Source: a virus. Taken from it: a stretch of DNA of 64,000 nt. Shown piece by piece: positions 1,497 to 48,785 of the stretch. The stretch spans positions 905 to 64,904 of the IMG/VR virus record IMGVR_UViG_3300009768_000008; one strand, 5' to 3'. The position numbers and the translations under genes are program-made. Each line of letters begins with the position of its first letter. Position 1 is the stretch's first letter. The notes beneath the pieces were generated by a model. That model made no database searches and was not told the DNA's origin. It saw only the letters and a program-made list of their open reading frames with translations.

Positions 1497-4400
1497 TTAA
1501 TATTCTGTTTCGATATAAATACGGTTAATACCAAGCTGGATCTGGGTAGCTACTGTTAAAGCAGCATTACTAGCCAGAACACCAGCTGTAAGTAAGGTTG
1601 TGTTTGTGGGAAGGTTGGTTGTAGCAGTACCAGAAGCCTCGGTACCAGTTGTGATATCCACAATTCTCCAAGTATATTGTGAACTGTTTGGAGCACAGTA
1701 GATAAATAGATCATATCCTTTTTTGGATGTGATTGTAAAGCCAGTTGAAGCTTTTGTAGCAGCTGTACCTCTTGTAAGGAACGAGATAGCTCCGTTATCA
1801 GCAGCATCCACACAGAATCCTACAGTATTGTTCAAAGCTGAAGGATCTGCAGATACTACAGTGGTAGCAGAGTGCATGCCAGCAAAGAAACGACCACCAT
1901 TTGTCCATACGTCAAAACCACAACGAGTATAGAAGAAGAAACCACCTTGACCAGCAGCACCACCCCTCATAAACATGGCATCAGTATTTCTTTGACCAAG
2001 TACCTGGTTCGTTGTAGTTACCACATTTGCGTACCTACTTCTCTTTGTGGCAGTATAAACGTTGGTAGTTGTAGGAAGGGCTGACGTAAATGTACCAGAA
2101 CCAGCACCAGCTGTACCAATCCACAAACCAGCTGTTGCACCAGTGGTTGTCCACAGTACAATGTTGTTCTGCCATAAAGCAGATTGTAGAGACATGGCCA
2201 GACCAGTATCCCCGAGGATTCTAGCTGTTGCTCTACCAGCAATATACTTAGAGTATTTTACTGTGTTACCAGATGCAGGAACAGAAGGTTCTGTACTCAG
2301 ACCTTTGATAAGCATCTGACTATTTGTAGCCAGTAATGATAAGATACCATTTGTGTCATCCCAGGTAAAGTTAGCAGATGCTCCCAGGGTACCGGCATTA
2401 TTATATTGGATCTGGGTATTTGAACCAGCCGGTGAAGCTGTTACAGTAGCCCAAGTATTATCTCCCCTCAGATATGTTGACGCTGAAGGGGTACCTGTAG
2501 CTGAAAGGTTTGAGATACCTACAATGGAGTTAGCCAGAGTTGTAGCAATAGCTGTTGTCCCAGATCCTGTTACAGCTCCGGATAATGTGATTGTTTGGTT
2601 ACCTGTGAGATAAGTGTTTGTATCCAGAGCGAACGTACCAGCAGATGTCATCTTCACAAAGGAAGTTGAGACAAAGGACAGACCTGCTAAAGAAGTCAGG
2701 TTTGTGGACAAAGGTTGAGCACCAATAGTGTTATAACTTACTGTAAGAGCACTAGCTCCATTGAAAGTACTACCAGAAGTTCCACCGGTACCACCATTGT
2801 TGAATGTAATAGCATTTGTTGTTGTACCACCACTACCAGATGGCGCGGCCCATGTTCCATCTGCACGAAGGAAGTTAGAAGTTCCTCCACCAGAAGCAGG
2901 AACCAGACCTTTCAGAGTACTTGTAAAGACATCCAGAAGTGTGGTAGCTTGTGTACCAGTCAATGTTTCCACGTTACCAGTTCCAGCTGTCACCCTACCA
3001 TGGAATGTACCAGTAGCTACCTGGGCCAACATGGCATTGGTTACCTTATTAGCACCAATGGTTGTTGTGATTGCTGTTGTACCAGTACCGGAAATATCTC
3101 CAGAGAGTGTGATAGATTGGTTGGCTGTCAGATAAGTAGAACTATCCAGGCTACCATCACCTTTTACAAACTGACCAGACGTACCAGAAATATAGCTTAT
3201 AACACCGGCTGTGGATTTTACAATACCAGTTCCTGACAAAGGAGCCTGATAGCTAAGAGCAGGAATATCAGTAGCAACCAGTAACCTAAATCCTGGAGTA
3301 CCTGCAGAACCATTAGGAGCCGCATATACAAAGTTTGCAGTTTGAGATCCAAATGTGTTGTTTAGATCTGTACCGGTAACAGCTGTGTTACCCGTTACGC
3401 GACCCTTTGTATCCAGGGTGATCTTTACAAAGTTGGCACCAGTAGATTGAACTACAGTAGCTAAGGTAGTTGTAATAGCGGTTGACCCTGTACCAGAAAC
3501 GTCACCAGAAAGAGTGATCGACTGGTTTGCAGTTAGATAGGTTGAGGTATCAAATACCCAGGTATTGGTACCTGTACCAGTGTACTTCAGTAAGCCAGCA
3601 CTGGCTCCGAGAGCCGGGAGAGCTACCCCTCTAAGACCTGTAACTGTTATTGCGGGTGTCAGAGATGTAGCACCAGATCCACCAGAAGAAGATACATCTC
3701 CTGTAGGACTGAATGAGATTGTCTGGTTAGCTGTAAGATAAGTACTCGTGTCTAGAGTCCAGGTATTCAGAGCTGTTTTCTTAGCAAAACCTGTAGTTCC
3801 AGCCAGTGCTGCTATGGCACTAAGATCACCATCAAGCGGTTGATATGTTGTGGCAGCAGTAGCTGAAGTCAGATAAGGACTCAAAGCTGAACTGGTAATA
3901 TATCCAGAGTCATTCGTAAATGAAGATACGTTTGTCGGGGCCCCTGTTAGCTTACTATAGGCCAGGGAAGTAATCCAGGTTGGATCAGCGTACGAACCAC
4001 TTGTCAGAACATCACCAACACTCCAGGAACGGTTGAGAGATAAATCCAGGGTAGTACCGTTAATAGTCAAAGTTCTGGTTGTCTGTACATATCCGGTAAG
4101 GGCTGATGAGGTTATATAACCAGCATCATTTGTAAAACTGGATACGTTTGTGGGTGCTCCAGTCAGTTTACCATAAGCTAATGAAGTGATCCATGCAGGG
4201 TTTGCATAAGATCCAGAAGTATAAACTCCATTTGTTACAGTTCCGGCATTTCCACTAATACTGATGCTCCAGGTACCAGAAGCACCTGTACCGGTCAGAG
4301 AAGGAATATCAGTACCAATAGCCAGACCAAGATTTGTTCTAGCTGCCAGAGCTGTACTTGCACCAGTACCACCATTTACAATACCAAGTTCTCCAGATAC

Positions 4401-7079
4401 AGCTGCTGACTGATTTAAAGCTACCGCATTCCATTCTACCTGTGTACCGGTAGCATTAACCAGAAGTGATTTATAAGCGGCACCAAGAGTAAGTTTACCC
4501 CAGGTATTTAAGGCAGAACCGTATAACAGATCTCCTACTGCTACGGTACTTAAACCAGTACCACCATGAGTAGGATCTACAATTCCAGATAAAGAAAACT
4601 CAGTTCCAATAAGTTGTAAAGGAGCCAATGCTGAGTAATCCGGAGATGCACTAAAGAGTGTAAAGTCAATATCACTAACACCAAAGATAATTGGTGTACT
4701 GATCGTCATTACATAAGACTCACCAGCACCAGGACTACCTTCTTTCAGATAGAAGTAGTCACCCTGGCCAAGTTTTGATGTACTATTTGGTCCGTATTTA
4801 TTAGTATCAGTAGAGCGGGTAAGCACCCAGTTAGTAGAACCAGATCCTACGTTTGTTACGGTATAAATACCGTTTTTGTACATAGCAACATCTTGATCAA
4901 GTAAAACTCGATCACCCACATTCATTGTAACACCATTGATGACAAGAGCTGCTTGTACACCAGCATTTGTAAGAGTGGCTCCAACACCGGTATTAGCTTT
5001 ACCACCTAGAGTATATCCAGATCCATTTGTAAGAGTTGTAATCTCAACACCACCATAAGTGGCAGATACTAGAAATGTATTCGGTGTAGGTACATCATGT
5101 ACAAAGTAGGCAACACCAGTTGTCAGACCATAAGCTGATGTATTGAATGTCACTACATCATCTACAGATAATCCATGGTTTACAGAAGTTGTCAGTGTTG
5201 TACCGCCTGAGATTGCAGTTACTGTAAACGTAGTTCCACCATCAGCATAGGTGGCGTTAACAGGACCATGAAGTTCTACACGAACTGCAGGATGAATATC
5301 AATACCAGTTGAGGTAGCATTATCTACATACTCTTTTGTAGTAAGTTGTGTAGCGTAAGTAACTGGGGCTGTAGCATACATAGCACCAGTAGATGATACG
5401 TTTCCAGTAATTCTGGCTGAACCAACAACCTGGAGTTTGTTTACCGTATCATCAGTAATAGTATTCAGAAGCAGGTTACCTGTTGCTGCTTTCAAGGTCA
5501 TTTTGATATCAGCAGAAGACAGACCACCTGCAAACAGCACAATATCACTACCAGGAGTACCAGTACCTAAGTAGAGCATAGAAGGCTGAGCTCCTGCCCC
5601 ACCTCCGGTAAACACATAACCAGAGTTAGCTGGAAAGATTGAATAGGTACTAGAGCTGTAGTTAGAGCTGTTGATACCCATATCAATGAAATAAGAATCT
5701 ACATCTGATGCATCATTATAAGCTACAAAGTCAGCTGAAGCATCTGAACCAGCATGTAGGTTTTGTACATATACCAACTGATAGTTGTTGGTATTTGATA
5801 CAAAACTAGCCATGGTATTGATGTACGGGGTATTACTTGTAACACCAGTACCATATACCTGTAGAGTCTTTGCTATGATGTCAGTAGCTGTAAGATCGTG
5901 TAAACCAAGATCCAGATCAGAAGTTGCCCCACTATAAGGAACGAATCCTGATACAGCAGCTACAGAAAGTGTAAAGTTTGGATAACTACCAGTGATTGTT
6001 ACTCCACCTCCATTTGTAAGTGTTACTACCTGATCAGGAGCAGAGTTAGTAATTACACCAGTAGTATTGTTATAGTTAATACCAGTACCAGAAGATAAAC
6101 CAGTACGAGCTATATAGTTGTTTGGATTACTTAAAGGATAGTAAGTGGCTGCTGCTGTTACAGAAGTCAGATAACTACCAAGAGCAGAAGGTATGACATA
6201 GTCTACCCCAGCTGTGGCGGCACTGATAGCAGTACCATTACCTTTCAGTAAGCCATTGATTGTAGTAGATAAAGTGATGGCTGGTGTAGTTGTAGCATTA
6301 GCTACAGTTCCTGCAAAACCGTTTGCTGAAACAATAGAAACAGTAGTTACTCCACCTGTAGATACTGATGCCCAGGAAAGAGAAGAGCCATCTGTTGTCA
6401 GGAATTTACCTCCATTACCAGTTTGATCAGGAAGAGTTACTTCCATCAGAAGATCTGAGTAGATTACAATATCTACCACATCACCACTATGAACTGGATC
6501 AACAAATGTGATACTGTGAGAAGTATTAGAGAACGAAGAGGTATTTATACGAACACCATTGATGAATACATCAAAGTATCCTACAACGAGCGTATGAGTA
6601 GTATTAAAAAGAGTCTGACCTTCAATACCACTGAAACTTTCTGTATAACGAGTAGTTGCGGTACCGGAAATAGCAGCTGTGGATATGTTGGAGATACGAC
6701 CATACTGGTCAACAGTAATAATAGGAACAGCGTTTGTTCCTCCGTAAGTATCTGCAGTTACCCCGGTAGTTGCCAGATCCAGAGTAACATCACCTGTTCC
6801 AGGATCAACGCCAGTACTTAAGATTGAAAGATTAGGTCCAACTGATATCTTACTTACATATGCTACGTCAATAGAAGATCCACTCCAACCAGTACCATTC
6901 CAGGTAAACAGGTTATTTAGAGTAATATCATAAACAATGAAACCCTTATCACTAAGACCAAGAGTTCCACCAAGAGTGGTTCTATCAGTAGTAGTTAAAG
7001 GGTGAACCCGGGCGTTTAACAGCTTGTTTTTGTCCAGGTCTATGTTGTGTAGATATCTTGTTGTATCTAAGGTAGACAT
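1497..7079 (-). CDS. giant tail fibre / receptor-binding protein (1860 aa), repeat-rich
   Basis: Uninterrupted 5.6-kb ORF. Low-complexity G/T/S/N/A composition. Four or more copies of the module TYLTANQSITLSGDVSGTGSTAITTT and a tandem duplication of SGSYA(N/D)P(A/T)WITSLAY(G/S)KLTGAPTNVSSFTND(A/S)GYITSSAL. A strand-switched antisense ORF inside it was rejected. Confidence 0.7.
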   Translation of the reverse strand: MSTLDTTRYLHNIDLDKNKLLNARVHPLTTTDRTTLGGTLGLSDKGFIVYDITLNNLFTWNGTGWSGSSIDVAYVSKISVGPNLSILSTGVDPGTGDVTLDLATTGVTADTYGGTNAVPIITVDQYGRISNISTAAISGTATTRYTESFSGIEGQTLFNTTHTLVVGYFDVFINGVRINTSSFSNTSHSITFVDPVHSGDVVDIVIYSDLLMEVTLPDQTGNGGKFLTTDGSSLSWASVSTGGVTTVSIVSANGFAGTVANATTTPAITLSTTINGLLKGNGTAISAATAGVDYVIPSALGSYLTSVTAAATYYPLSNPNNYIARTGLSSGTGINYNNTTGVITNSAPDQVVTLTNGGGVTITGSYPNFTLSVAAVSGFVPYSGATSDLDLGLHDLTATDIIAKTLQVYGTGVTSNTPYINTMASFVSNTNNYQLVYVQNLHAGSDASADFVAYNDASDVDSYFIDMGINSSNYSSSTYSIFPANSGYVFTGGGAGAQPSMLYLGTGTPGSDIVLFAGGLSSADIKMTLKAATGNLLLNTITDDTVNKLQVVGSARITGNVSSTGAMYATAPVTYATQLTTKEYVDNATSTGIDIHPAVRVELHGPVNATYADGGTTFTVTAISGGTTLTTSVNHGLSVDDVVTFNTSAYGLTTGVAYFVHDVPTPNTFLVSATYGGVEITTLTNGSGYTLGGKANTGVGATLTNAGVQAALVINGVTMNVGDRVLLDQDVAMYKNGIYTVTNVGSGSTNWVLTRSTDTNKYGPNSTSKLGQGDYFYLKEGSPGAGESYVMTISTPIIFGVSDIDFTLFSASPDYSALAPLQLIGTEFSLSGIVDPTHGGTGLSTVAVGDLLYGSALNTWGKLTLGAAYKSLLVNATGTQVEWNAVALNQSAAVSGELGIVNGGTGASTALAARTNLGLAIGTDIPSLTGTGASGTWSISISGNAGTVTNGVYTSGSYANPAWITSLAYGKLTGAPTNVSSFTNDAGYITSSALTGYVQTTRTLTINGTTLDLSLNRSWSVGDVLTSGSYADPTWITSLAYSKLTGAPTNVSSFTNDSGYITSSALSPYLTSATAATTYQPLDGDLSAIAALAGTTGFAKKTALNTWTLDTSTYLTANQTISFSPTGDVSSSGGSGATSLTPAITVTGLRGVALPALGASAGLLKYTGTGTNTWVFDTSTYLTANQSITLSGDVSGTGSTAITTTLATVVQSTGANFVKITLDTKGRVTGNTAVTGTDLNNTFGSQTANFVYAAPNGSAGTPGFRLLVATDIPALSYQAPLSGTGIVKSTAGVISYISGTSGQFVKGDGSLDSSTYLTANQSITLSGDISGTGTTAITTTIGANKVTNAMLAQVATGTFHGRVTAGTGNVETLTGTQATTLLDVFTSTLKGLVPASGGGTSNFLRADGTWAAPSGSGGTTTNAITFNNGGTGGTSGSTFNGASALTVSYNTIGAQPLSTNLTSLAGLSFVSTSFVKMTSAGTFALDTNTYLTGNQTITLSGAVTGSGTTAIATTLANSIVGISNLSATGTPSASTYLRGDNTWATVTASPAGSNTQIQYNNAGTLGASANFTWDDTNGILSLLATNSQMLIKGLSTEPSVPASGNTVKYSKYIAGRATARILGDTGLAMSLQSALWQNNIVLWTTTGATAGLWIGTAGAGSGTFTSALPTTTNVYTATKRSRYANVVTTTNQVLGQRNTDAMFMRGGAAGQGGFFFYTRCGFDVWTNGGRFFAGMHSATTVVSADPSALNNTVGFCVDAADNGAISFLTRGTAATKASTGFTITSKKGYDLFIYCAPNSSQYTWRIVDITTGTEASGTATTNLPTNTTLLTAGVLASNAALTVATQIQLGINRIYIETEY

Positions 7080-20999: not shown

Positions 21000-21169
21000 A
21001 GTCTTAGGTTTTTAGCTGTAAGGGGACGGGTCGAACGTCCACGCAGAGATTCAGTATTGGAACGGCATATACGCTTGCAAGCATTAGTGGTCAACCCTTA
21101 CCGTATACCTATTTCTTTATCTGCACCCACGAGACGAGTGGGCGTGTCTGCCAGTTTCACCACCTTACA

Positions 21170-26117: not shown

Positions 26118-26245
26118 TAAACAAAACTCAGCAGTAGTAGTTGTCTTTAGAGTGGACTATTTCTCACTGAGGTAAGTAGATTACTAAGGGGTAATACTTA
26201 GTAAAATTAATCAGTGTCAGCTTATATACAACTGATTCTTATCAG

Positions 26246-26317
26246 TTTCCTCCCCTGGGTACGATCCAGGAACTGCAGGGCCAAAACCTGCCGTGATACC
26301 AGTTTCACCAAAAGGAA
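26246..26317 (-). tRNA. tRNA-Gln (anticodon UUG)
   Basis: Hand-folded cloverleaf. Acceptor UUCCUUU/GGAGGAA; D GUGA-AACUGGUA-UCAC; anticodon stem GCAGG/CCUGC with loop UUUUGGC; T CCUGG-AUCGUAC-CCAGG. Confidence 0.6.
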
Positions 26318-26323
26318 ATAGTG

Positions 26324-26395
26324 GGTGTAAGGACGGTACCGACCCGTCTTCCCCAGGTCCACAACCTGGTGCATCACCTTAATGCTTCAAACACC
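26324..26395 (-). tRNA. tRNA-His (anticodon GUG) with G-1:C73
   Basis: D GCAU/AUGC; anticodon CCAGG-UUGUGGA-CCUGG; T GACGG-GUCGGUA-CCGUC; extra 5' G pairs with C73; the acceptor stem has two U.U mismatches. Confidence 0.5.
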
Positions 26396-26400
26396 ATAAG

Positions 26401-26472
26401 AGCCTTCTACCGGAACCGACCCGGTAAGTCCTGTTTACAAGACAGGCAGTTTTCCAGTTAGCTTAAGAAGGC
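26401..26472 (-). tRNA. tRNA-Thr (anticodon UGU)
   Basis: acceptor GCCUUCU/AGAAGGC perfect; anticodon CCUGU-CUUGUAA-ACAGG; T ACCGG-GUCGGUU-CCGGU. Confidence 0.55.
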
Positions 26473-26477
26473 CTGTG

Positions 26478-26550
26478 TGGTACAGAGTGGTTACGATCCA
26501 CTTCCCCCGGTTTTTCAGACCGGTGCTTCTACCAAGTTAGCTTCTGCACC
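26478..26550 (-). tRNA. tRNA-Phe (anticodon GAA)
   Basis: acceptor GGUGCAG/CUGUACC; anticodon CCGGU-CUGAAAA-ACCGG; T AGUGG-AUCGUAA-CCACU. Confidence 0.6.
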
Positions 26551-26625
26551 AAGTAGGACTTTGTCAAAGCCGGCCACTCCTGCACAAAGAGGAGACCAGC
26601 TTGATCAGGTGTCCTGAAACCTTTG

Positions 26626-26698
26626 AGGTGGGTGGGAAACTCGAAGCCCCGTATGACTGTTTTGCGGACAGTTGCCTTACCATCTTGGCGAACCCACC
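26626..26698 (-). tRNA. tRNA-Cys (anticodon GCA)
   Basis: acceptor GGUGGGU/ACCCACC perfect; anticodon ACUGU-CCGCAAA-ACAGU (C33 unusual); T-loop UUCGAGU. Confidence 0.5.
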
Positions 26699-26704
26699 AT
26701 GTTG

Positions 26705-26776
26705 TCTAGCTGATCTGGATCGAACAGACGTAATCTTGCTCCCAAAGCAAGTGCCTTACCGCTAGGCTACAGCTAG
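26705..26776 (-). tRNA. tRNA-Pro (anticodon UGG)
   Basis: acceptor CUAGCUG/CAGCUAG; D GCCU-AGCGGUA-AGGC; anticodon CUUGC-UUUGGGA-GCAAG; T GUCUG-UUCGAUC-CAGAU. Confidence 0.65.
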
Positions 26777-26830
26777 AAAAAGAAAACCCCCAAACCGTTT
26801 TACCAGTCTGGGGGTTAGTATTTTGATTTT
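26774..26830. terminator. bidirectional terminator-like hairpin AACCCCC-(17 nt)-GGGGGTT flanked by U tracts on both strands
   Basis: read directly; abuts the 5' end of tRNA-Pro. Confidence 0.5.
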
Positions 26831-26944
26831 GTACTTCTTAACTCGTTGCTATGATCACTGTACATACACCAACACAACTACCCCCGCAGACCGGACAAGG
26901 TTGCGTAAACTGGGTAAACTGTGTATGGGTAGTAATCTTCTTCA

Positions 26945-26986
26945 TCTACAATACAAAGATACTACTTTTTGTAGAACTACCAAAAT
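26945..26986 (-). promoter_or_regulatory. Bacteroidetes-type sigma-A promoter (minus strand): -33 TTTG at 26983-26986 and -7 TATCTTTG at 26952-26959, 19-nt spacer containing GTTCTAC
   Basis: matches the TTTG / TAnnTTTG consensus with canonical spacing; the same extended motif recurs at six or more sites. Confidence 0.5.
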
Positions 26987-26993
26987 CTTTTTG

Positions 26994-27066
26994 CACGGGC
27001 CCAGGGAAACGATCCCTGTCCATCCGAGGTTTTGGAGACCTGGTGCATACCATTATGCTGGCCCAT
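26994..27066 (-). tRNA. tRNA-Trp (anticodon CCA), reduced D-loop
   Basis: acceptor AUGGGCC/GGCCCGU; anticodon CAGGU-CUCCAAA-ACCUC (4 bp); T CAGGG-AUCGUUU-CCCUG; D-loop only 4 nt. Confidence 0.45.
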
Positions 27067-27071
27067 GTATG

Positions 27072-27155
27072 TGGGAAGTGAGTGAGTCGAACACCCCGAG
27101 TCCGTAGACAGCTGGTTTACAATCAGCCCCGCTACCACTTACGGTATAACTTCCC
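27072..27155 (-). tRNA. tRNA-Tyr (anticodon GUA), long variable arm
   Basis: acceptor GGGAAGU/ACUUCCC perfect; anticodon GCUGA-UUGUAAA-CCAGC; variable hairpin; T GGGUG-UUCGACU-CACUC. Confidence 0.55.
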
Positions 27156-27235
27156 CTATTTCGCATATCCAGTCAGTAGTCTTTCCGTCAAAAGCTATCA
27201 ACCAGAGTATGCCGTTCATATTAACGATGTACATG

Positions 27236-27321
27236 CAGAGAGCAGAGTAGTCGAAACCCACCCCGGTTAAGGAGCCCACTGTTTAGCAAACAGGTCTGAC
27301 CACCTAGTCAGTTTACTCTCT
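27236..27321 (-). tRNA. tRNA-Ser (anticodon GCU), long variable arm
   Basis: acceptor AGAGAGU/GCUCUCU; 3-bp D-stem; anticodon CCUGU-UUGCUAA-ACAGU; T-loop UUCGACU. Confidence 0.5.
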
Positions 27322-27326
27322 AGATG

Positions 27327-27418
27327 CGGAAGGCAGAGGAACCGACCCCCATGCCCGTGTAAGGGGCAGCCTAGTTTTCAAGACTAGTCGCCACTCCAAT
27401 GTAGCTGCATTACCTTCC
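27327..27418 (-). tRNA. tRNA-Ser (anticodon UGA), long variable arm
   Basis: acceptor GGAAGGU/GCCUUCC; anticodon CUAGU-CUUGAAA-ACUAG; variable hairpin UGCCC-CUUACAC-GGGCA; atypical T-arm. Confidence 0.5.
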
Positions 27419-27424
27419 ATGTAG

Positions 27425-27510
27425 TACCGGTGGAGGGGGATGATCCCACACGATCCTTTCGGATCACAAGATTTTAAGTCTTGCGTGTCTGCCTATTTCA
27501 CCACACCGGC
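27425..27510 (-). tRNA. tRNA-Leu (anticodon UAA), long variable arm
   Basis: acceptor GCCGGUG/CACCGGU; anticodon CAAGA-CUUAAAA-UCUUG; variable hairpin GAUCC-GAAA-GGAUC. Confidence 0.55.
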
Positions 27511-27591
27511 AGTTGTCTGGACTCTCACCATAGCAGTCAGGGATTTCAGGTCCCCAGGTGTGCATTCAATTCGTCCCACCTTCTGACATCG

Positions 27592-27674
27592 TACCTCTGA
27601 CAGGCCTCGAACCTGCACCCGTTTCCGGACTAGATCCTAAGTCTAGCGTGTCTCCCAAGTTTCACCACAGAGGT
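27592..27674 (-). tRNA. tRNA-Leu (anticodon UAG), long variable arm
   Basis: acceptor ACCUCUG/CAGAGGU; anticodon CUAGA-CUUAGGA-UCUAG; T GCAGG-UUCGAGG-CCUGU. Confidence 0.55.
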
Positions 27675-27685
27675 ATAAAAACCAA

Positions 27686-27715
27686 AATCCCGACCAGGAA
27701 AACCTAATCGGGATT
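27686..27715. terminator. hairpin AATCCCGA-(14 nt)-TCGGGATT followed by a U tract (plus strand); also U-flanked on the minus strand
   Basis: read directly. Confidence 0.4.
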
Positions 27716-27941
27716 GGAAACTTTTTCAGTAACTACATACCTCACCCGATTGGTTTATGCAACCAATACAGACTGAGTGAGGATAGAGTAAACTGCTTCA
27801 TAAAAATTTGGTGGATGGTCACCCCACTTGTTTTAATCTAAACAAGAAATCATCGGTCGGTTACGTTAACTTCTCAGCTTGAACGCCTGTCGTGTGACCT
27901 TTCAGCTTTCACGCCTGTTAAGAGGCTTTACCGACCATCAC

Positions 27942-27990
27942 AATACAAATATACAACTCTTTTGGAGTTCTACAAAATATTTTTGTGGAG
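27942..27990 (-). promoter_or_regulatory. Bacteroidetes-type promoter (minus): -33 TTTG inside ATTTTGTAGAAC, 19-nt spacer, -7 TATATTTG. Also a near-palindrome TCTACAAAAtatTTTTGTGGAG.
   Basis: read on the minus strand: ctccacaaaaatatTTTGtagaactccaaaagagttgTATATTTGtattg. Confidence 0.55.
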
Positions 27991-28061
27991 ACTCTGGAAC
28001 TTGAATCCAGCTGATATCCTGCTTGCAAGGCAGGTGTCCACTCCTGGCAGACCCAGTCCCC
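27986..28061 (-). tRNA. tRNA-Ala (anticodon UGC)
   Basis: acceptor GGGGACU/AGUCUCC (G.U); anticodon CCUGC-CUUGCAA-GCAGG; T CUGGA-UUCAAGU-UCCAG; 7-nt variable region is unusual. Confidence 0.45.
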
Positions 28062-28067
28062 ATGCTG

Positions 28068-28139
28068 TACTCTCGGGTGGTAACGATCCACCTACCTTCT
28101 CCGTATCAGGGAGCTACTCTACCATTGAGCTACGAGAGT
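28068..28139 (-). tRNA. tRNA-Ile (anticodon GAU)
   Basis: acceptor ACUCUCG/CGAGAGU perfect; D GCUC-AAUGGUA-GAGU; loop CUGAUAC; T GGUGG-AUCGUUA-CCACC. Confidence 0.6.
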
Positions 28140-28144
28140 ATAAG

Positions 28145-28217
28145 TTGATCCGGGTGGGTACGATCCACCGACCTTGACGTTATGAGCGTCCTGCTACTAC
28201 CACTGAGCTACGGATCA
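28145..28217 (-). tRNA. tRNA-Met (anticodon CAU), copy 1
   Basis: acceptor UGAUCCG/CGGAUCA; D-arm GUAGCUCAGUGGUAG; loop CUCAUAA; T GGUGG-AUCGUAC-CCACC. Confidence 0.55.
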
Positions 28218-28222
28218 GTATG

Positions 28223-28296
28223 CGGTCCGTACCGGGATCAAACCGGTCATCTCTGGCGTGACAAGCCAGCGTCTTCATCGTGCAGACCCACGGACC
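28223..28296 (-). tRNA. tRNA-Asp (anticodon GUC)
   Basis: acceptor GGUCCGU/ACGGACC perfect; anticodon CUGGC-UUGUCAC-GCCAG perfect; T ACCGG-UUUGAUC-CCGGU. Confidence 0.6.
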
Positions 28297-28302
28297 AAAT
28301 AG

Positions 28303-28376
28303 TACCCCCACCGGAGATCGAATCCGGTTCTTCACCGTGAAAGGGTGGCGTCCTGTACCTTCTAGACGATAGGGGC
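28303..28376 (-). tRNA. tRNA-Glu (anticodon UUC)
   Basis: acceptor GCCCCUA/UGGGGGU; D CGUC/GACG; loop CUUUCAC; T CCGGA-UUCGAUC-UCCGG (canonical). Confidence 0.55.
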
Positions 28377-28456
28377 AAATTGGAGGCTTAGGACTCCATC
28401 ATCCTCCTTGAGATCCCGGCGTCCTTCTACTTTTTATAGTACGGATCTCTTTTACG

Positions 28457-28528
28457 AGCAGCATCTCGGGGTCGATCCGAGTTCTCCGGTTTGGAAGACC
28501 GGCACATCAGCCCTAATGCTTATGCTGC
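28457..28528 (-). tRNA. tRNA-Gly (anticodon UCC)
   Basis: acceptor GCAGCAU/AUGCUGC perfect; anticodon CCGGU-CUUCCAA-ACCGG perfect; T CUCGG-AUCGACC-CCGAG. Confidence 0.6.
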
Positions 28529-28639
28529 ATGAAAGAACAGAGCTCCAGGGGAATCTCACCCGTCTGTCCGGAACAGACCTCACTGCCTTTTACTATGTAC
28601 GGTATTTACTCGTACACAACAGCTACCTGAAGATGATCT

Positions 28640-28710
28640 TGGTTGCGGGGCCGGGATTTGAACCCGGGAAACACGGCTTATGAGACCGGTCGGCCACCTG
28701 GCTCCCCACA
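28640..28710 (-). tRNA. tRNA-Met/Ile2 (anticodon CAU), copy 2, CCA encoded, reduced D-arm
   Basis: T CCGGG-UUCAAAU-CCCGG; acceptor UGUGGGG/CCCCGCA plus ACCA; loop CUCAUAA; the 8-48 region is about 6 nt short. Confidence 0.45.
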
Positions 28711-28719
28711 ATAAAACTG

Positions 28720-28793
28720 CGGACTCTCCGGGGAACGATCCTGGAACCTTCACCTTAACAGGGTGCCGCTCTACCAGTTGAGCTAAGAGTCCG
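28720..28793 (-). tRNA. tRNA-Asn (anticodon GUU)
   Basis: acceptor GGACUCU/AGAGUCC perfect; D GCUC-AACUGGUA-GAGC; loop CUGUUAA; T-loop AUCGUUC. Confidence 0.55.
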
Positions 28794-28865
28794 TATACTT
28801 AGAAGGATTCCAACCTTCACTTTCAGTTTAGAAGACTGACGTGCTAAGCATTACACCATAAGTAC
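28794..28865 (-). tRNA. tRNA-Arg (anticodon UCU)
   Basis: acceptor GUACUUA/UAAGUAU; anticodon UCAGU-CUUCUAA-ACUGA perfect; T GAAGG-UUGGAAU-CCUUC. Confidence 0.55.
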
Positions 28866-28870
28866 ATATC

Positions 28871-28944
28871 TGGAAGACCCGGAGGTAGTCGAAACCCCAT
28901 CATCACGTTCGTAGCGTGATATCCTTCCATTGAACGACGGGTCC
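28871..28944 (-). tRNA. tRNA-Arg (anticodon ACG), CCA encoded
   Basis: acceptor GGACCCG/CGGGUCU; D GUUC-AAUGGAA-GGAU; anticodon UCACG-CUACGAA-CGUGA; T GGGGU-UUCGACU-ACCUC; 3' UCCA. Confidence 0.55.
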
Positions 28945-28996
28945 TTGTTAAGACCGTCTTCGGTAATATGTACTGTAGTGTGTCATGTCTTCTGTC

Positions 28997-29073
28997 TGGT
29001 AGCTCCTATCCGGGTCGAACGGATGCATTCTCGGTATGTAACACCGAAGCTCTACCACCTGAGCTAAGGAGCT
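28997..29073 (-). tRNA. tRNA-Val (anticodon UAC), CCA encoded
   Basis: acceptor AGCUCCU/AGGAGCU perfect; D GCUC-AGGUGGUA-GAGC; anticodon UCGGU-GUUACAU-ACCGA; T AUCCG-UUCGACC-CGGAU; 3' ACCA. Confidence 0.6.
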
Positions 29074-29136
29074 ATTTGAAGCTCATTATTGAGCTTGAAT
29101 GAGCTGAATATTGAGCTTAATCGGCTCATATATCTT

Positions 29137-29208
29137 GTTCCCCCGTCCGGTAACGATCCGGACCCCACGGATTAAAAGTCCGTTGCCTACACCTGTTTGC
29201 TACGAGGG
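29137..29208 (-). tRNA. tRNA-Lys (anticodon UUU)
   Basis: acceptor UCCCUCG/CGGGGGA (G.U); anticodon ACGGA-CUUUUAA-UCCGU perfect; T UCCGG-AUCGUUA-CCGGA; weak D-stem. Confidence 0.5.
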
Positions 29209-29244
29209 AAAATAAAAAACCCCGGTAGCTGGTGCTCCGGGGTT
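29208..29244 (-). terminator. intrinsic terminator (minus): AACCCCGG-(11 nt)-CCGGGGTT plus TTTTTTATTTT, abutting the 5' end of the tRNA array
   Basis: read directly. Confidence 0.6.
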
Positions 29245-31492: not shown

Positions 31493-32185
31493 TTCTTTCC
31501 TCATACTCTTCATCCACAGTCAACCTGAATACGGTCGGGCGTGGATCAAATAGCTATAGGCACGGGTGTTCCCTGCCGTATGCAAAACACAACAAACCCA
31601 AGTGGCACAGGGGGTAACTCTCTGCAGGGAGATATAGTAGATGTCTGTAACAAGCTCTATGGTCACACTAGGCATATTGGTAATTATTCTTGGTAAGCCG
31701 GTATATGCCACCGGCTCCAAAAAAACGCTAGAGACCAACGCCGGCACAGTGGACTGGACTACTGGAGGGGATGTGAAGAACCAGATATTAGCTGACTCCC
31801 TGACGTGCTGGTGTTGTTATCTCTACTACACAACTACTGTCTCTTATGTATCAATGCGTCACAACCTGGTTCCCAAGGCTAGGCAGTTGTAATAGGCTCA
31901 AGACTTTTAAGTCTGTAAGTAGTGGAAACAGTTAGGTTCAAATCCTACATATTACAACTGAACGCAGAGGGATATGATACCTGATTTCTCCACCGTTCTA
32001 AAACCTACGCTATATGCCACAGGATCCTTCATTACCGTTTACTATCATTTCAATGTATCCGTCTGTTGAACACCCTGGTAAGGTGGCTGTCCTTGTACAG
32101 TACAAAGATGGTATACAGAAAGTCTTATACCTGACCGACAAGCCTGTCTATGGTATTCAGGTAGAACAATAAAACCGACCCGGAT

Positions 32186-42020: not shown

Positions 42021-42221
42021 TCTGATACTGAGAGCTAGTAAGTAATCTATGGGGAAGTCCGTCGAACAGTTTTTCACTTAGTACCGTCCCCGTGTGATAA
42101 TAGGCGTAGCCGGTCTGGGAACCGTGCATAAACCCAGTAGATCCACTCGAAGTAGTGTGAAAGCTATCCTCAGTATAGACCTTGGCTTGGAACACTTGTG
42201 CCAGTAAACAGGTGTACTCAG

Positions 42222-42294
42222 GGAGTAGCTCAGATAGGAGAGCATCCGGGCGACCCCCGGAAGGTCGGTGGTGCAAGTCCACCCTTCCTAACTA
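42222..42294 (+). tRNA. tRNA-like gene with non-canonical anticodon loop GCGACCC (no U33); acceptor stem has 6 of 7 pairs
   Basis: D GCUC-AGAUAGGA-GAGC; anticodon stem UCCGG/CCGGA; T GGUGG-UGCAAGU-CCACC; acceptor CAGGGAG/CUUCCUA. Confidence 0.4.
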
Positions 42295-42308
42295 AACCAA
42301 AGAAACCT

Positions 42309-43109
42309 ATGAGTTACGCCATTAAACTTTTATTCTTTTTAGGTAGTTGTATTCTTGCATTTGTAGCCGGTAGGCTTACAAGCAGTCTGTCTTACCACTG
42401 GAGTCAAGTGGATGGGCCGAATCAGGCCGTTATAGTTTCACCCAATGACAGTACCACACAAGTCAACGGTTTGGTACAGGGTGTCTATCATTTTGAGTTA
42501 GCAGTTACCGACCCTCAAGGAGCTACAGGACGGGATACCATGATGGTTACCGTACTTCCTGGAGTTCTTCCTATCAAACTGGTTTACTTCAAAGCGTACC
42601 CGCTGGCTGATGTAAACATGATCAAGTGGAAAACATCTGAAGAGATAAACATAAAAGAGTTTATCCTGGAATCCTCTACAGACGGTGTTCATTTTTACGG
42701 TCTCTATCATACGTTTGCTATCGGAGCTACACCAACCTCTCCTTCTGAGTATGACTATGAACATAAGTTCCCAGGAAGAGAGCAGTATTACAGACTTAAG
42801 TCTATTGAGACATCTGGTACTTATACATACAGTGATGTTGTAAAAGTAACCAGATCTATTTCGACATCTATTTGGTCAAACAACCCTGTTACATCGACTC
42901 TTAATGTTACCATAAACGTAGATAATGCTACTACAGCTAACTTCTACATTTATGATGCTACCGGAAGAAGAATGGCATTCTATACGTACAATCTAAGTCC
43001 TGGTAAGAACAGTTTCAGTTATCATACTGGTCAGTATGCTTCTGGTCTGTATATCATTAAAGTTGACGTAGGAGGTATTATCTCAACCAAAAAATTCGTC
43101 AAACAATGA
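42309..43109 (+). CDS. secreted protein with a T9SS (Por) C-terminal sorting domain (267 aa from the Met at 42309)
   Basis: N-terminal signal/TM (MSYAIKLLFFLGSCILAFVAG). C-terminus FYIYDATGRRMAFYTYNLSPGKNSFSYHTGQYASGLYIIKVDVGGIISTKKFVKQ matches the type-A CTD consensus. The ORF-track start at 42198 was rejected as an N-terminal extension. Confidence 0.55.
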   Translation: MSYAIKLLFFLGSCILAFVAGRLTSSLSYHWSQVDGPNQAVIVSPNDSTTQVNGLVQGVYHFELAVTDPQGATGRDTMMVTVLPGVLPIKLVYFKAYPLADVNMIKWKTSEEINIKEFILESSTDGVHFYGLYHTFAIGATPTSPSEYDYEHKFPGREQYYRLKSIETSGTYTYSDVVKVTRSISTSIWSNNPVTSTLNVTINVDNATTANFYIYDATGRRMAFYTYNLSPGKNSFSYHTGQYASGLYIIKVDVGGIISTKKFVKQ

Positions 43110-44791: not shown

Positions 44792-45485
44792 TAAGCTTGT
44801 AAAGTATGTAGTCTTCCAGTGACATGAGGACGGTAAGATGTATCGGTTAATAACCAGAGTCTTACGAGTAAGTCACCTTTACATGATCAGGCTAAACATT
44901 GAAGCCTTTGTACGCTGCTCGACGACATTTGTAACGTGAGTCAGACTGCATAAAGATAACAACCCTGAATGAACAGGGTGTAGATAACCTTAAAGCAATA
45001 AGAGGTGAGAAAAGTACCTTGAGGGTCTAAGAACGATGGACACTTTTATAGTGCACCAGTTTCCCGCCAGAGTAAGGACGGAGGGACTAAGACTATATCT
45101 TTCAAAATCTATGGAGTAATCCTGTACGTGTTGTTCCCTTGAGAAAGGAAGGGTTACGTGGATGAGCGTGGTTAAGAGCCTACCCCCAACAACACGAATG
45201 AGTTTTCAGCAAGTAGTTATGAGGAGGAGATTAAGATTCTCTATCAGGTACAGAAGCCAAAGCGGAGTGCTCTGTTAGGTAAATGGGATGCTTGAGTAAG
45301 CCGTTATATTAAAGCATCGGTAATAACTACACGACCCTACTCTTATAGAAGACTGAGGCTTGATAAGAGCCCATCCTCACTGAAATATGACCAGACCTCT
45401 TTTACATGACCAAGTTTGTAGAAGAAGGGTACTGTAAGGAGTCATTACTATAAGACAAGAGGGTGCTAGTGATTTACAAGGAACA

Positions 45486-46195: not shown

Positions 46196-46531
46196 ATGAA
46201 AAAGATCATCTTTTCAATCTTAACAGCAGTAGTACTGCTGAGTGCATGTGAAACATCTGAAGGTATCAAAGCTGGTACCTTACAGAAAGTAAGTCATAAG
46301 ACCTTCCCCTGCTCCTACTATGTAGCGGAGTTTGCATTTGAAGGTGGCCGGGCATCTGGTTCTAACGACTCAAAAGCTTACGCGAACACCCAGGAAGTGG
46401 AAATCACTAAAGAAGCTTTTGACAGCCTCCAGAACCTGGTAGGAAGCCGTGTACGGTTCTCCTACAAAGACGAAGGTTTCAAGGCGTGTGCTCCGAATAA
46501 AAAACTGGAGACACTGGCTGTCATTAAATGA
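46196..46531 (+). CDS. lipoprotein (111 aa; lipobox LLSAC)
   Basis: MKKIIFSILTAVVLLSAC. Confidence 0.45.
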   Translation: MKKIIFSILTAVVLLSACETSEGIKAGTLQKVSHKTFPCSYYVAEFAFEGGRASGSNDSKAYANTQEVEITKEAFDSLQNLVGSRVRFSYKDEGFKACAPNKKLETLAVIK

Positions 46532-46884
46532 TCAAACCGGTTGGGTAGCACAAACACAGAAACTGTCCAAATGTTGTACAACTCTGTATGAACATCTGAG
46601 CCAAGTAGTGCGTCGGTGTCCAAAGCCGAAGATGATGGGGTAGGTCCATCCCTGGCCACACGTTCCGAAACATGACAACGGATAGTACCATCCTGTATGA
46701 TGAGAAGCAGAGTGATGTCTGTATGGATAAGTGACAACTTCTTTGAAAGTTGTGGGCCGACAGCCTGAGATCTGTGATCTTAAAAGTCTAGTCCTAACTC
46801 ACCTAGAAAAAACAGCAGGGAGGGGATAACCCTCTGTGAGGACAGCCACGGTACTTGCAAGCTGGATAAATTAGAGTACCACAC

Positions 46885-47005
46885 GGGCTTATTAGTTCAG
46901 TGGCAGAACACCGGGTCCGATGAGGCGGCTTTTATTAAGGTTATTGCAACCCCAAAAGAAAACCGAAACCCCGGGAGGTCACCAGTTCAAATCTGGTATA
47001 AGCCC
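46885..47005 (+). tRNA. tRNA-like gene with a roughly 50-nt insertion in the anticodon loop. Acceptor and D arm (GGGCUUAU-UA-GUUC..GAAC) and T arm plus acceptor (ACCAG-UUCAAAU-CUGGU-AUAAGCC-C) are intact.
   Basis: acceptor 7/7 pairs plus G-1:C73; anticodon-stem halves CCGGG ... CCCGG separated by 53 nt. Confidence 0.4.
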
Positions 47006-47039
47006 CTATAAACAAACACTTTAAATTAGTCTAAAGCTT

Positions 47040-47279
47040 ATGAAAGTCTTATTCGGAAAGATGCCCAGTAAGTTGATCGTACGTTTGAAGATAGCACTGG
47101 GTATCTTTACTATCTGTACGATCTTTGGGATTATAGGGTACTTTGTACCTTCTTCAAAGCCTCCCTTACTTAGAACATTTGCTGCGTTCATCCTACCACT
47201 TGCTTGTCTAACAGCAGTTCTGATCTTGTTTAAGATCATGGAATTTATCCTGTGGTGTTTTGATTGTAAGCCCAGGTAA
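47040..47279 (+). CDS. small membrane protein (79 aa)
   Basis: hydrophobic. Confidence 0.3.
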   Translation: MKVLFGKMPSKLIVRLKIALGIFTICTIFGIIGYFVPSSKPPLLRTFAAFILPLACLTAVLILFKIMEFILWCFDCKPR

Positions 47280-48363
47280 AAATATAGTACAGAGGAGGTA
47301 GGCTTGGAAGTAGCCATAAGGTAGAACCTTACTCTTGGGTTGAGGCTGGCTGAGATCAGATATACATCTAAGAGTCCTTTAAAGAGTTGCAAGTAGGACC
47401 CGTAACTGATTATGTGACGACTAAAAGTGGTAAAACTACAGGAGATATAGTCCTGATGAAAAGAAGTAAGCGTCAATAGGACTGAGTAGCTGGATTATTA
47501 TACACTCCTTAGAGCATTTGGTGTAACAACACACTCTGTACTTTTTTCTTAGCTCCGGGGATCACACCATCCGTCAATCTGGTTGTGTTATGTTTAAGCA
47601 AGCTTAAAAGAGCAGCTCCATTGGTCTGTTTACTGTCTGGTGAGCTCAGACTTTAAAAAGTAGAATGGGTCAACTGGAAAAGCTGCAGAAATATTTGTAG
47701 AACTCCTAAAAAAGTTCTATATTTGTTCTACACTGGGCCCGTCTGGTTTAGACAGCAGAGTGAGTGGTAACTACACATGTGGACAAAGTAAGAACGTCCT
47801 AAAATACTTACAAAACAATAAACGCTATGACTAAGTCTGAGCGTGTAGCAGAAGGTGAAGCTATCCTGGCTTCTATCTTCGTTGATGAGGCTGTAGCAGC
47901 CTGATCCTACGGGGGATCTATCCCTGGCAACAGAAAATAGAACTGAAGTCTTATATGAGCATACAGAACTAAACGGGACATATGCCGTAAAGTAATCCGT
48001 GTATAAGACGTAGAGTGGCTCCCTTAATAGTCTAGGCTGACCTAGAGCATTCTAACTGAAGCATGGTATACAGGGGGTGAAGCCGTGCAACCCAGCTATG
48101 GGTTACCAGAATGATACAGTTACAGATGAGCGTAGTATGTGAAAACATTCAAATAAGTATCTGTTATAAAAAGTATAGTGACTGAATGTTTGGTAGTAAT
48201 AGCATGTTTTCCTGGTTATGTCAAAACTAGGTGGTGGAGTAGGCGGTCTTGATTGGACGCCCCCAAACTACGGTGCAGATGAAGTGACGCAGTCTTTTAG
48301 ACTTGATCCAAAGTAATCAGTACTAAACATGTAATACGTTGTAGTTATTGACTTCTTTGTTGG

Positions 48364-48392
48364 ACACGAGTTCGATTCTCGTCGGGTCCACT
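48364..48392 (+). other. tRNA 3'-half-like element: T arm ACGAG-UUCGAUU-CUCGU plus acceptor CGGGUCC-A, with no 5' half
   Basis: read directly; canonical T-loop. Confidence 0.4.
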
Positions 48393-48785
48393 CTCTCAAA
48401 GCTAAGCAATCGTTAGACCCCCGGTGGTTTCTACTACTGGGGTTTTCTTTTTAAACAAGTTACTCAACATATTTTCTTAGAGATGTTCTCTTTGAAAATC
48501 TGGATACGTCTTTATCCAAGTCCCGTGGGGAAGGTCATTGAGACCATAGACTGTCACAAGAGGAAAAAACTGGAAGATTCTTACGGCAGTTAAGATATCC
48601 TGACTTCAATGTCGAAGTAACACTTGTCGTAGACGGGTTTAAAAAAGAGTAGTACAATTCTAGATATGTACGTTGATCCTGAGTATTTATACAATATACC
48701 CGCTGATACAGAAGTATCAGAGACGTAAACTCCTGTCTGACGACCAGTACGTTAAACTGGTCTTTTTACATCCTTAACCAAGCAT

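Follow-up and report, generated by a model that had tools for sequence, protein, structure and literature searches.

What is a phage gene that has every stem of a tRNA and no anticodon loop? The question arises at a locus in the 64,000-nt stretch of viral DNA analyzed here (hereafter the window, in whose numbering all positions are given). The window belongs to a phage with a genome of ~133–135 kb, as it encodes a major head protein, a portal, and a large terminase at 12.5–20.8 kb. It contains promoters of the TTTG...TAnnTTTG type, and an ORF at 42198–43109 (+) encodes a PKD-like domain together with a T9SS C-terminal sorting domain, which is unusual for a phage protein. We take such promoters and the sorting domain to be hallmarks of Bacteroidota, and the host is therefore probably a Bacteroidota species. 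The features of the locus and its surroundings are collected in Table 1.

Table 1. RNA features discussed in the text, in window coordinates.
Feature	Position	Strand	Description
tRNA-like gene	46885–47005	+	8-bp acceptor including G-1:C73 (G-1 at 46885, C73 at 47005), D arm, 5-bp anticodon stem, T arm; without anticodon loop
Acceptor stem of the tRNA-like gene	46886–46892 / 46998–47004	+	GGCUUAU / AUAAGCC
D arm of the tRNA-like gene	46895–46898 / 46906–46909	+	GUUC / GAAC; loop AGUGGCA
Anticodon stem of the tRNA-like gene	46911–46915 / 46970–46974	+	CCGGG / CCCGG
Segment replacing the 7-nt anticodon loop (cargo)	46916–46969	+	54 nt; 3′ half C/A-rich
T arm of the tRNA-like gene	46981–46997	+	ACCAG (46981–46985), loop UUCAAAU, CUGGU (46993–46997)
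Core RNA	46661–46880	+	conserved ~220-nt pseudoknotted ncRNA; ends 4 nt before G-1 (gap 46881–46884)
Degenerate tRNA-like remnant (low confidence)	46599–46660	+	T-arm-like GAUGG-GGUAGGU-CCAUC, then CCUGGCC-ACA
Second tRNA-like	21017–21169	-	acceptor UGUAAGG/CCUUACA, tRNA-Leu-type D arm, ~80 extra nt, normal T arm
tRNA cluster	26245–29209	-	17 ARAGORN default calls and 3 extra Rfam hits; 24 calls at relaxed threshold
tmRNA	47735–48393	+	659 nt; Rfam 60.7 bits; no ARAGORN call; predicted tag AMTKSERVAEGEAILASIFVDEAVAA

A first-pass annotation of the window had described a tRNA-like gene at this place, and the gene is real. All four stems are perfect, with 22 of 22 pairs Watson–Crick when G-1:C73 is counted in, and the positions of tertiary interactions are kept (U8, A14, the GG of the D loop, and the UUCAAAU T loop). 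The Rfam model RF00005 scores the element at 46.2 bits, above its gathering score of 29 (E = 1.1e-6 when the whole 64-kb window is compared with all 4227 families, E = 8.4e-9 locally) and is the only member of the tRNA-like clan CL00001 to match at the locus; this match is not a chance hit. Folding under a cloverleaf constraint yields -32.5 kcal/mol, about equal to the free minimum of -32.6 kcal/mol. A strict search of both strands of the whole window for a 7-bp acceptor plus T arm returned 11 matches, nine of them in the tRNA cluster, one being this element and one the odd second tRNA-like of Table 1. ARAGORN with default settings makes no call on the element. Nor does the element have the canonical 7-nt loop, in which U33 and a purine at position 37 are expected; 54 nt stand in its place, and positions 32–33 read UC. 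The long separation of the stem halves had been noted before, with a length of 53 nt; the true count is 54, and the figure of 53 agrees with the Rfam alignment, in which one U is counted apart from the other 53. CCA is not encoded, and the acceptor stem is followed by CCUA.

Two traits point to tRNA-His. The G-1:C73 pair is characteristic of that tRNA, and over 18 nt the T arm has the same sequence as that of a tRNA-His(GUG) from a related phage (L028). Nevertheless, the element does not derive from the phage's own tRNA-His by recent copying, and the anticodon GUG is absent anywhere in the 54-nt segment. For decoding, the phage would not need it, because it carries its own tRNA cluster of at least 20 genes (up to 24 at the relaxed ARAGORN threshold); the relaxed calls provide a tRNA for every one of the 20 amino acids, His(GUG) and Cys(GCA) among them.

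The 54-nt segment starts with UC after the 5′ half of the stem and ends with CCGAAAC before the 3′ half. Within its closing stem, it folds at -13.1 kcal/mol compared with -15.1 ± 2.7 kcal/mol for shuffled sequences (z = +0.75), and a second comparison likewise placed it no better than shuffles (z = +1.24). BLAST found no homologue in ~1.6 Mb of related loci, only chance 12–18-mers. As for an antisense target in the window, complementarity does not exceed 11 nt, and matches of 10–11 nt occur about as often as expected by chance. No remnant of an original loop flanks the segment, so the anticodon loop has been replaced and not interrupted; a simple insertion event, one of the origins proposed in the first-pass annotation, is for the same reason unlikely.

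Immediately upstream of the element lies a second RNA. We collected loci of related phages from IMG/VR (numbered with the prefix L), the first of which were found through the neighboring AAA ATPase. In BLAST comparisons, positions 46787–46877 are conserved in related loci whereas the tRNA-like element is not, and alignment widened this conserved unit to the ~220-nt core RNA, which is conserved in L001, L008, and L010. An exact pattern from its 3′ part, GGACAGCC N4-10 YTGYAAGYTGGATA, occurs in 83 IMG/VR stretches and in just 1 of 185,579 GTDB species genomes. A profile of the core RNA recovered 94 copies in the fetched loci and scores the window copy at 114.8 bits (E = 2.7e-33, nhmmer). Its structure, built on 42 sequences, comprises seven helices, one of them pseudoknotted, with 93.6% of cells paired, compared with 35–47% in slid controls. 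Compensatory changes occur in 27 of the 34 pairs, and none of 500 shuffles reached the observed covariation score. Invariant motifs include GAUAGU, CGAUGAGAA, UAUUCCUAAC, GGGACAGCC, and the terminal 18-nt loop UGUAAGUUGGAUAAAUUA, which holds two T-loop-like pentamers. The core RNA is genuinely structured and widespread; it has no family in Rfam 15 and is not similar to the GOLLD RNA found in L034. Together, these findings fill in the ORF-free tract of roughly 500 nt that the first-pass annotation had reported: the tract (46532–47039) indeed has no convincing plus-strand ORF, and conserved structured RNA occupies most of it.

The core RNA is bordered on its 5′ side by a putative degenerate remnant of a tRNA-like. 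This remnant aligns with the ...CCUGACU-ACA 3′ ends of tRNA-likes that precede the core elsewhere, and five of its seven acceptor pairs form; its fold is no better than shuffles, and it has no Rfam match.

What follows the core RNA differs among phages. Across 63 distinct loci, a tRNA or tRNA-like starts within 25 nt of the last core hairpin in 22 and a T-run stands there in 18, the rest showing other sequence that includes degenerate tRNA-likes and, in L001, a minihelix of acceptor plus T arm. The spacing from the core hairpin to the tRNA-like is short and constant (4–7 nt). The nearest relatives of the window's core have a T-run (L008, L010) or that minihelix (L001) in the slot; reduction to a minihelix is also seen in L043, and ordinary tRNAs fill the slot in L032, L048, and L073. 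On the other side, a tRNA-like directly precedes the 5′ end of the core RNA in 34 of the 63 loci. In L031, where both sides are occupied, the two flanking elements align to the Rfam model as tRNAs, with 11 and 56 nt standing in for the anticodon arm. As a separate observation, L042, L068, L094, and L108 share a motif, AAUGCACCAUUCU..., directly after the core, instead of a tRNA-like or T-run, and this motif may be a further RNA module.

Most of the slot elements have a common body, AGUCAGG-UGGCGGAAUUGGUAGACGC ... ACAGG-UUCGAAU-CCUGU-CCUGACU-A, which shares A1:U72, the D arm, and A73 with the tRNA-Leu genes of the phages themselves. We found 84 distinct copies of this type with lengths of 66–199 nt, a conservative count, as the finder demanded perfect stems, and one that is not a test of covariation. 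Of the 84, ARAGORN recognizes 9, to which it assigns anticodons that do not agree with one another. By BLAST, the middles of the 84 group into 59 clusters, and ten of these recur in different phages. Several such elements are present per genome, where they alternate with conserved non-coding blocks; in L028, for example, element B lies between two tRNA-likes, the second of which is followed by the core RNA and then by a third tRNA-like, and the alternation continues. Arrays of AGUCAGG...CCUGACU elements also lie inside tRNA clusters (L028:1895–3110, L088:6806–8000, L104 (-) 6044–6913, and other IMG/VR loci), and in some of the arrayed elements, the D loop contains a conserved insert of ~65 nt. 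Bacterial RNase P favors substrates with U-1, A73, and C74-type flanks. Elements of the AGUCAGG type have U at -1 in 76 of 90, A73 in 71 of 90, and C74 in 89 of 90 cases; by sequence, these flanks look like those of pre-tRNA substrates.

The window element sits in the same slot, with a 4-nt gap after the core hairpin, and follows the same design as in L031, with intact acceptor, D, and T arms and a loop replaced by non-tRNA sequence. Its body is another one: it is of class I (GGCUUAU.../...AUAAGCC-C) and not of the Leu-type AGUCAGG kind, and the base before G-1 is a C, without the U at -1 of the family. Owing to this different body, the element is, as far as its sequence tells, an analogue in the same slot and not a sequence homologue of the AGUCAGG family. 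It is also a singleton. All other contigs that carry it are 100% identical, and the next relative has 65% identity in the neighboring ATPase and a different synteny. Relatives found through the AAA ATPase in IMG/VR, JGI metagenomes, and a set of 5.8 billion proteins reach at most 62–65% identity and do not have the window element, and blastn of 46400–48500 against INPHARED phages gave no match. A pattern of the window D arm, a gap of 58–88 nt, and the T arm had zero matches in IMG/VR. With a normal gap, the same arms matched unrelated tRNA-Leu, Val, and Ile genes only, so the parent tRNA is not traceable by arm pattern. The comparison with related phages that the first-pass annotation had suggested thus showed the core RNA and the slot to be conserved but produced no divergent copy of the element itself.

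Our preferred reading, to which we give about an even chance of being right, is that the element serves RNA processing and stability as a tRNA-shaped module (punctuation or scaffold), is cut by RNase P, and does not decode. The core RNA and the tRNA-like are probably made as one transcript; between them, no Bacteroidota-type promoter or terminator was found, and the next predicted terminator (48419–48442) lies after the tmRNA. Host RNase P would recognize the intact acceptor, T arm, and elbow and cut at the 5′ end of the tRNA-like. This cut would at the same time set the 3′ end of the core RNA, which is the job of the T-run in sister phages. The freed 121-nt tRNA-like would then be trimmed at its 3′ end in the manner of a pre-tRNA and persist as a stable, nuclease-resistant molecule that displays the 54 nt at the tip of its anticodon stem. 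Since decoding would not be required of such a module, the anticodon loop would have been free to be replaced. With its intact tRNA fold without a usable anticodon loop, and with tRNA-likes of relatives in the same slot, the element bears out the suggestion in the first-pass annotation of a tRNA-derived ncRNA. Punctuation alone, however, would need just the acceptor and T arm, which leaves the kept D arm, the perfect anticodon stem, and the 54 nt unexplained. These parts, surplus to a minihelix, leave room for a functional insert, for charging by HisRS, or for continued attachment to the core RNA.

Continued attachment would make the tRNA-like the 3′ domain of an RNA of ~345 nt (core plus tRNA-like), comparable to the tRNAs in the GOLLD linker, and we regard it as unlikely. 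The constant, short spacing of 4–7 nt is compatible with a single folded RNA, in which the T-loop-like pentamers of UGUAAGUUGGAUAAAUUA could conceivably dock onto the tRNA elbow. GOLLD has been reported near tRNA islands with tRNAs in its linker (PMC12286853), and a GOLLD RNA is present in the core-bearing phage L034. The core, however, ends in a T-run without a tRNA-like in 18 of the 63 loci, from which it follows that it works without one. In the relatives, moreover, the flanks show U-1 and C74, as RNase P substrates do, and the ordinary tRNAs that at times occupy the slot also speak against a fixed domain.

That the element is instead a decaying pseudogene appears improbable to us. On this account, the element would be the nonfunctional relic of a tRNA, perhaps a tRNA-His, whose anticodon loop was replaced or disrupted by an insertion; this would fit a singleton without homologue and an insert no better structured than shuffles; the upstream slot of the same phage holds a clearly degenerate tRNA-like, and the middles of related elements are extremely variable. 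Decay should not, however, rewrite the loop alone while leaving 22 stem pairs Watson–Crick and every tertiary position intact, and tRNA-shaped elements hold this slot in many phages.

A third possibility, which we rate as quite unlikely, is an aminoacylatable tRNA mimic with a function in trans, charged by HisRS through G-1:C73 and, in the Leu-type relatives, by LeuRS. It could act as a decoy, a sponge, or an amino-acid donor, or deliver the 54 nt to tRNA-binding machinery. The anticodon plays little or no part in the identities of tRNA-His and tRNA-Leu. G-1:C73 is kept here, the family scaffold matches the phages' tRNA-Leu in A1:U72, the D arm, and A73, and full elbows are kept instead of just minihelices. 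Charging is harder to reconcile with the CCUA in place of an encoded CCA and with the bare minihelices of L001 and L043.

The first-pass annotation had also considered an intron-bearing or split tRNA, and such genes with an interrupted anticodon region are known, with bulge-helix-bulge introns in archaea and eukaryotes (PMC4090602) and group I introns in bacteria (PMC13011429). Unlike these, the window element has no splice motif, no ribozyme, and no loop that can be reconstructed. With UC at the start of the loop and CCGAAAC at its end, a 7-nt loop between CCGGG and CCCGG could be made by eight joins, all of which yield C33; the resulting anticodons are GAA, CAA, CGA, and others, never GUG. 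For a bulge-helix-bulge (two 3-nt bulges separated by a 4-bp helix), the fold that had been proposed for inspection, the 122-nt stretch was searched exhaustively in either orientation, with 0 matches. The group I model RF00028, which detects an intron in L010, has no match in the element at E ≤ 1, and at 54 nt, the segment is far below the size of such introns (typically 200 nt or more). No RNA-splicing enzyme was found among the window ORFs scanned (20 by Pfam and 10 by PHROGs, partly the same ORFs). In favor of an intron, the tRNA halves are perfect, and ARAGORN in intron mode does return a tRNA-Cys(GCA) with a 28-nt intron, because UUGCAAC in the insert resembles an anticodon loop. This model is forced: its 5-bp stem would contain two C-A mismatches, its variable region would run to 25 nt, and the perfect CCCGG partner goes unused. 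The phage, moreover, already has a tRNA-Cys(GCA) candidate at 26626–26698 (Rfam 45.2 bits; ARAGORN at relaxed threshold). A short intron spliced out to give a working tRNA is therefore very unlikely.

Least credible of all, an insert that is a small self-cleaving ribozyme or a K-turn or box C/D-like protein-binding motif is suggested by CGAUGAG and CGAAAC, which resemble the hammerhead core and box C, by CCGAUGAGG...CCGAAAC flanking the insert beside a GUC triplet, and by the invariance of CGAUGAGAA in the core RNA too, but both readings of CGAUGAG...CGAAAC were rejected on geometry and Rfam: a hammerhead would lack the whole of stem I as well as U4, and its helix III would lie in a register that disrupts the tRNA stem; in a K-turn, GA must abut the C-stem strand on its 5′ side, where the sequence reads three extra bases in between; and ribozyme, hammerhead, snoRNA, tmRNA, and YrlA models have no match at the locus even at E ≤ 10.

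Returning to the processing module, its logic is that of tRNA punctuation. In mitochondrial transcripts, MALAT1-mascRNA, the tRNA-miRNA RNAs of gammaherpesvirus 68, and synthetic tRNA-gRNA arrays, tRNA shapes stand between or after other RNAs, and RNase P and RNase Z free the neighbors with exact ends. The arrangement proposed here shares this logic, including 3′-end formation of the mascRNA type, but those systems are eukaryotic, organellar, or synthetic. Among tRNA-like domains in which a non-tRNA module takes the position of the anticodon arm, tmRNA and YrlA mimic the acceptor, T arm, and D arm; YrlA is permuted and ends in a long stem, whereas the window element ends in its acceptor stem. 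It has no Rfam match to either, and a standard tmRNA is encoded separately further downstream (Table 1). The closest geometry is that of the engineered tRNA scaffold of Ponchon and Dardel, in which an intact tRNA carries a foreign RNA on its anticodon stem, and tRNA processing together with the compact fold gives defined ends and nuclease resistance (PMC3753655). That scaffold is man-made, while the phage arrangement is natural, phage-encoded, and recurrent, and is known here from sequence. The genomic setting recalls GOLLD and ROOL, large structured phage RNAs in or near tRNA islands that at times have tRNAs in the transcript (PMC12286853). In comparison, the core RNA has ~220 nt and no Rfam match to either, and its tRNA-likes are without anticodon loops. 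Phage T4 RNA C and RNA D are small stable RNAs of unexplained role from a tRNA region (PMC3014915); we liken them by this setting alone, with no sequence relation expected. Large surveys have listed tRNA-like candidates in viral contigs, without such an architecture (PMC10690425). In the literature searched, whose coverage is incomplete, we found no description of anticodon-less tRNA-Leu-like units alternating with ncRNAs in bacterial viruses. The conserved 220-nt RNA and the array organization are more novel than the tRNA-like element itself.

Tentatively, and as something we would rather doubt than assert, the arrays invite a broader reading: freshwater Bacteroidota phages may use natural 'tRNA scaffold' arrays to punctuate polycistronic ncRNA transcripts, the ~220-nt RNA among them. 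The bodies would be mostly derived from tRNA-Leu and, in the window, tRNA-His-like; they would hold dozens of different structured inserts as cargo, the 54-nt insert being functional as well, and, through identity marks for the synthetase that do not depend on the anticodon, they might be charged. If the proposed processing is true, phages have arrived independently at a trick of RNA engineers (tRNA scaffolds and tRNA-gRNA arrays) that gives ncRNAs exact ends and stability. It would also explain tRNA look-alikes that gene finders miss or supply with spurious anticodons. The analysis has in addition exposed an unannotated, widespread, and strongly covarying phage RNA of ~220 nt with several conserved RNA blocks around it. 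For annotation purposes, the element should be counted neither as a tRNA gene nor as a case of a bacterial-type tRNA intron.

The second tRNA-like of the window, located just upstream of the ORF in front of the terminase, was missed by both Rfam and ARAGORN. Its ~80 extra nt stand before the T arm, and it has an invariant hairpin, CCCAC-UCGUCUC-GUGGG. It is kept in L058, L033, L091, and L063 (three distinct sequences), with a compensatory change in the hairpin stem.

Further observations concern the tRNA cluster and other non-coding parts of these genomes. Several cluster tRNAs are non-canonical, such as the tRNA-His(GUG) candidate at 26323–26394, which has two U-U acceptor mismatches and a GUCGGUA T loop. 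The inter-tRNA stretches 27160–27423, 27675–27984, and 26780–26992 are ORF-free, with a Bacteroidota-type promoter at their start. The tmRNA is flanked by a promoter of this type at 47694–47725 and by the terminator at 48419–48442, and in L010, the corresponding tmRNA region has a group I intron at its 3′ end. Upstream of the tmRNA in the window, a block at 47538–47590 (+), AGCUCCGGGGAUCACACCAUCCGUCAAUCUGGUUGUGU, is 86–94% conserved in L010/L087, L008/L116/L029, L117, and L057, in the last of which it stands directly after the core RNA. Within a 5.6-kb stretch (29.2–34.9 kb) without any ORF of at least 150 aa, a 39–41-nt block at 31853–31893 is 90–95% conserved in L107 and L035. Another block, UACGUGUUGUUCCCUUGAGAAAGGA...CAACAACAC, lies at ~45120–45200 (+) in the ORF-free tract 44792–45485; 24–25 exact bases of it are common to L028, L034, L077, L090, L097, L098, and L100, and in L028 two tRNA-likes flank it immediately ahead of the core RNA. 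The block probably represents a further ncRNA. Finally, L034 carries GOLLD RNA (311.9 bits) beside its tmRNA, at 2643–3056 (-) and 2090–2488 (+), and the same phage also has the core RNA and tRNA-like arrays.
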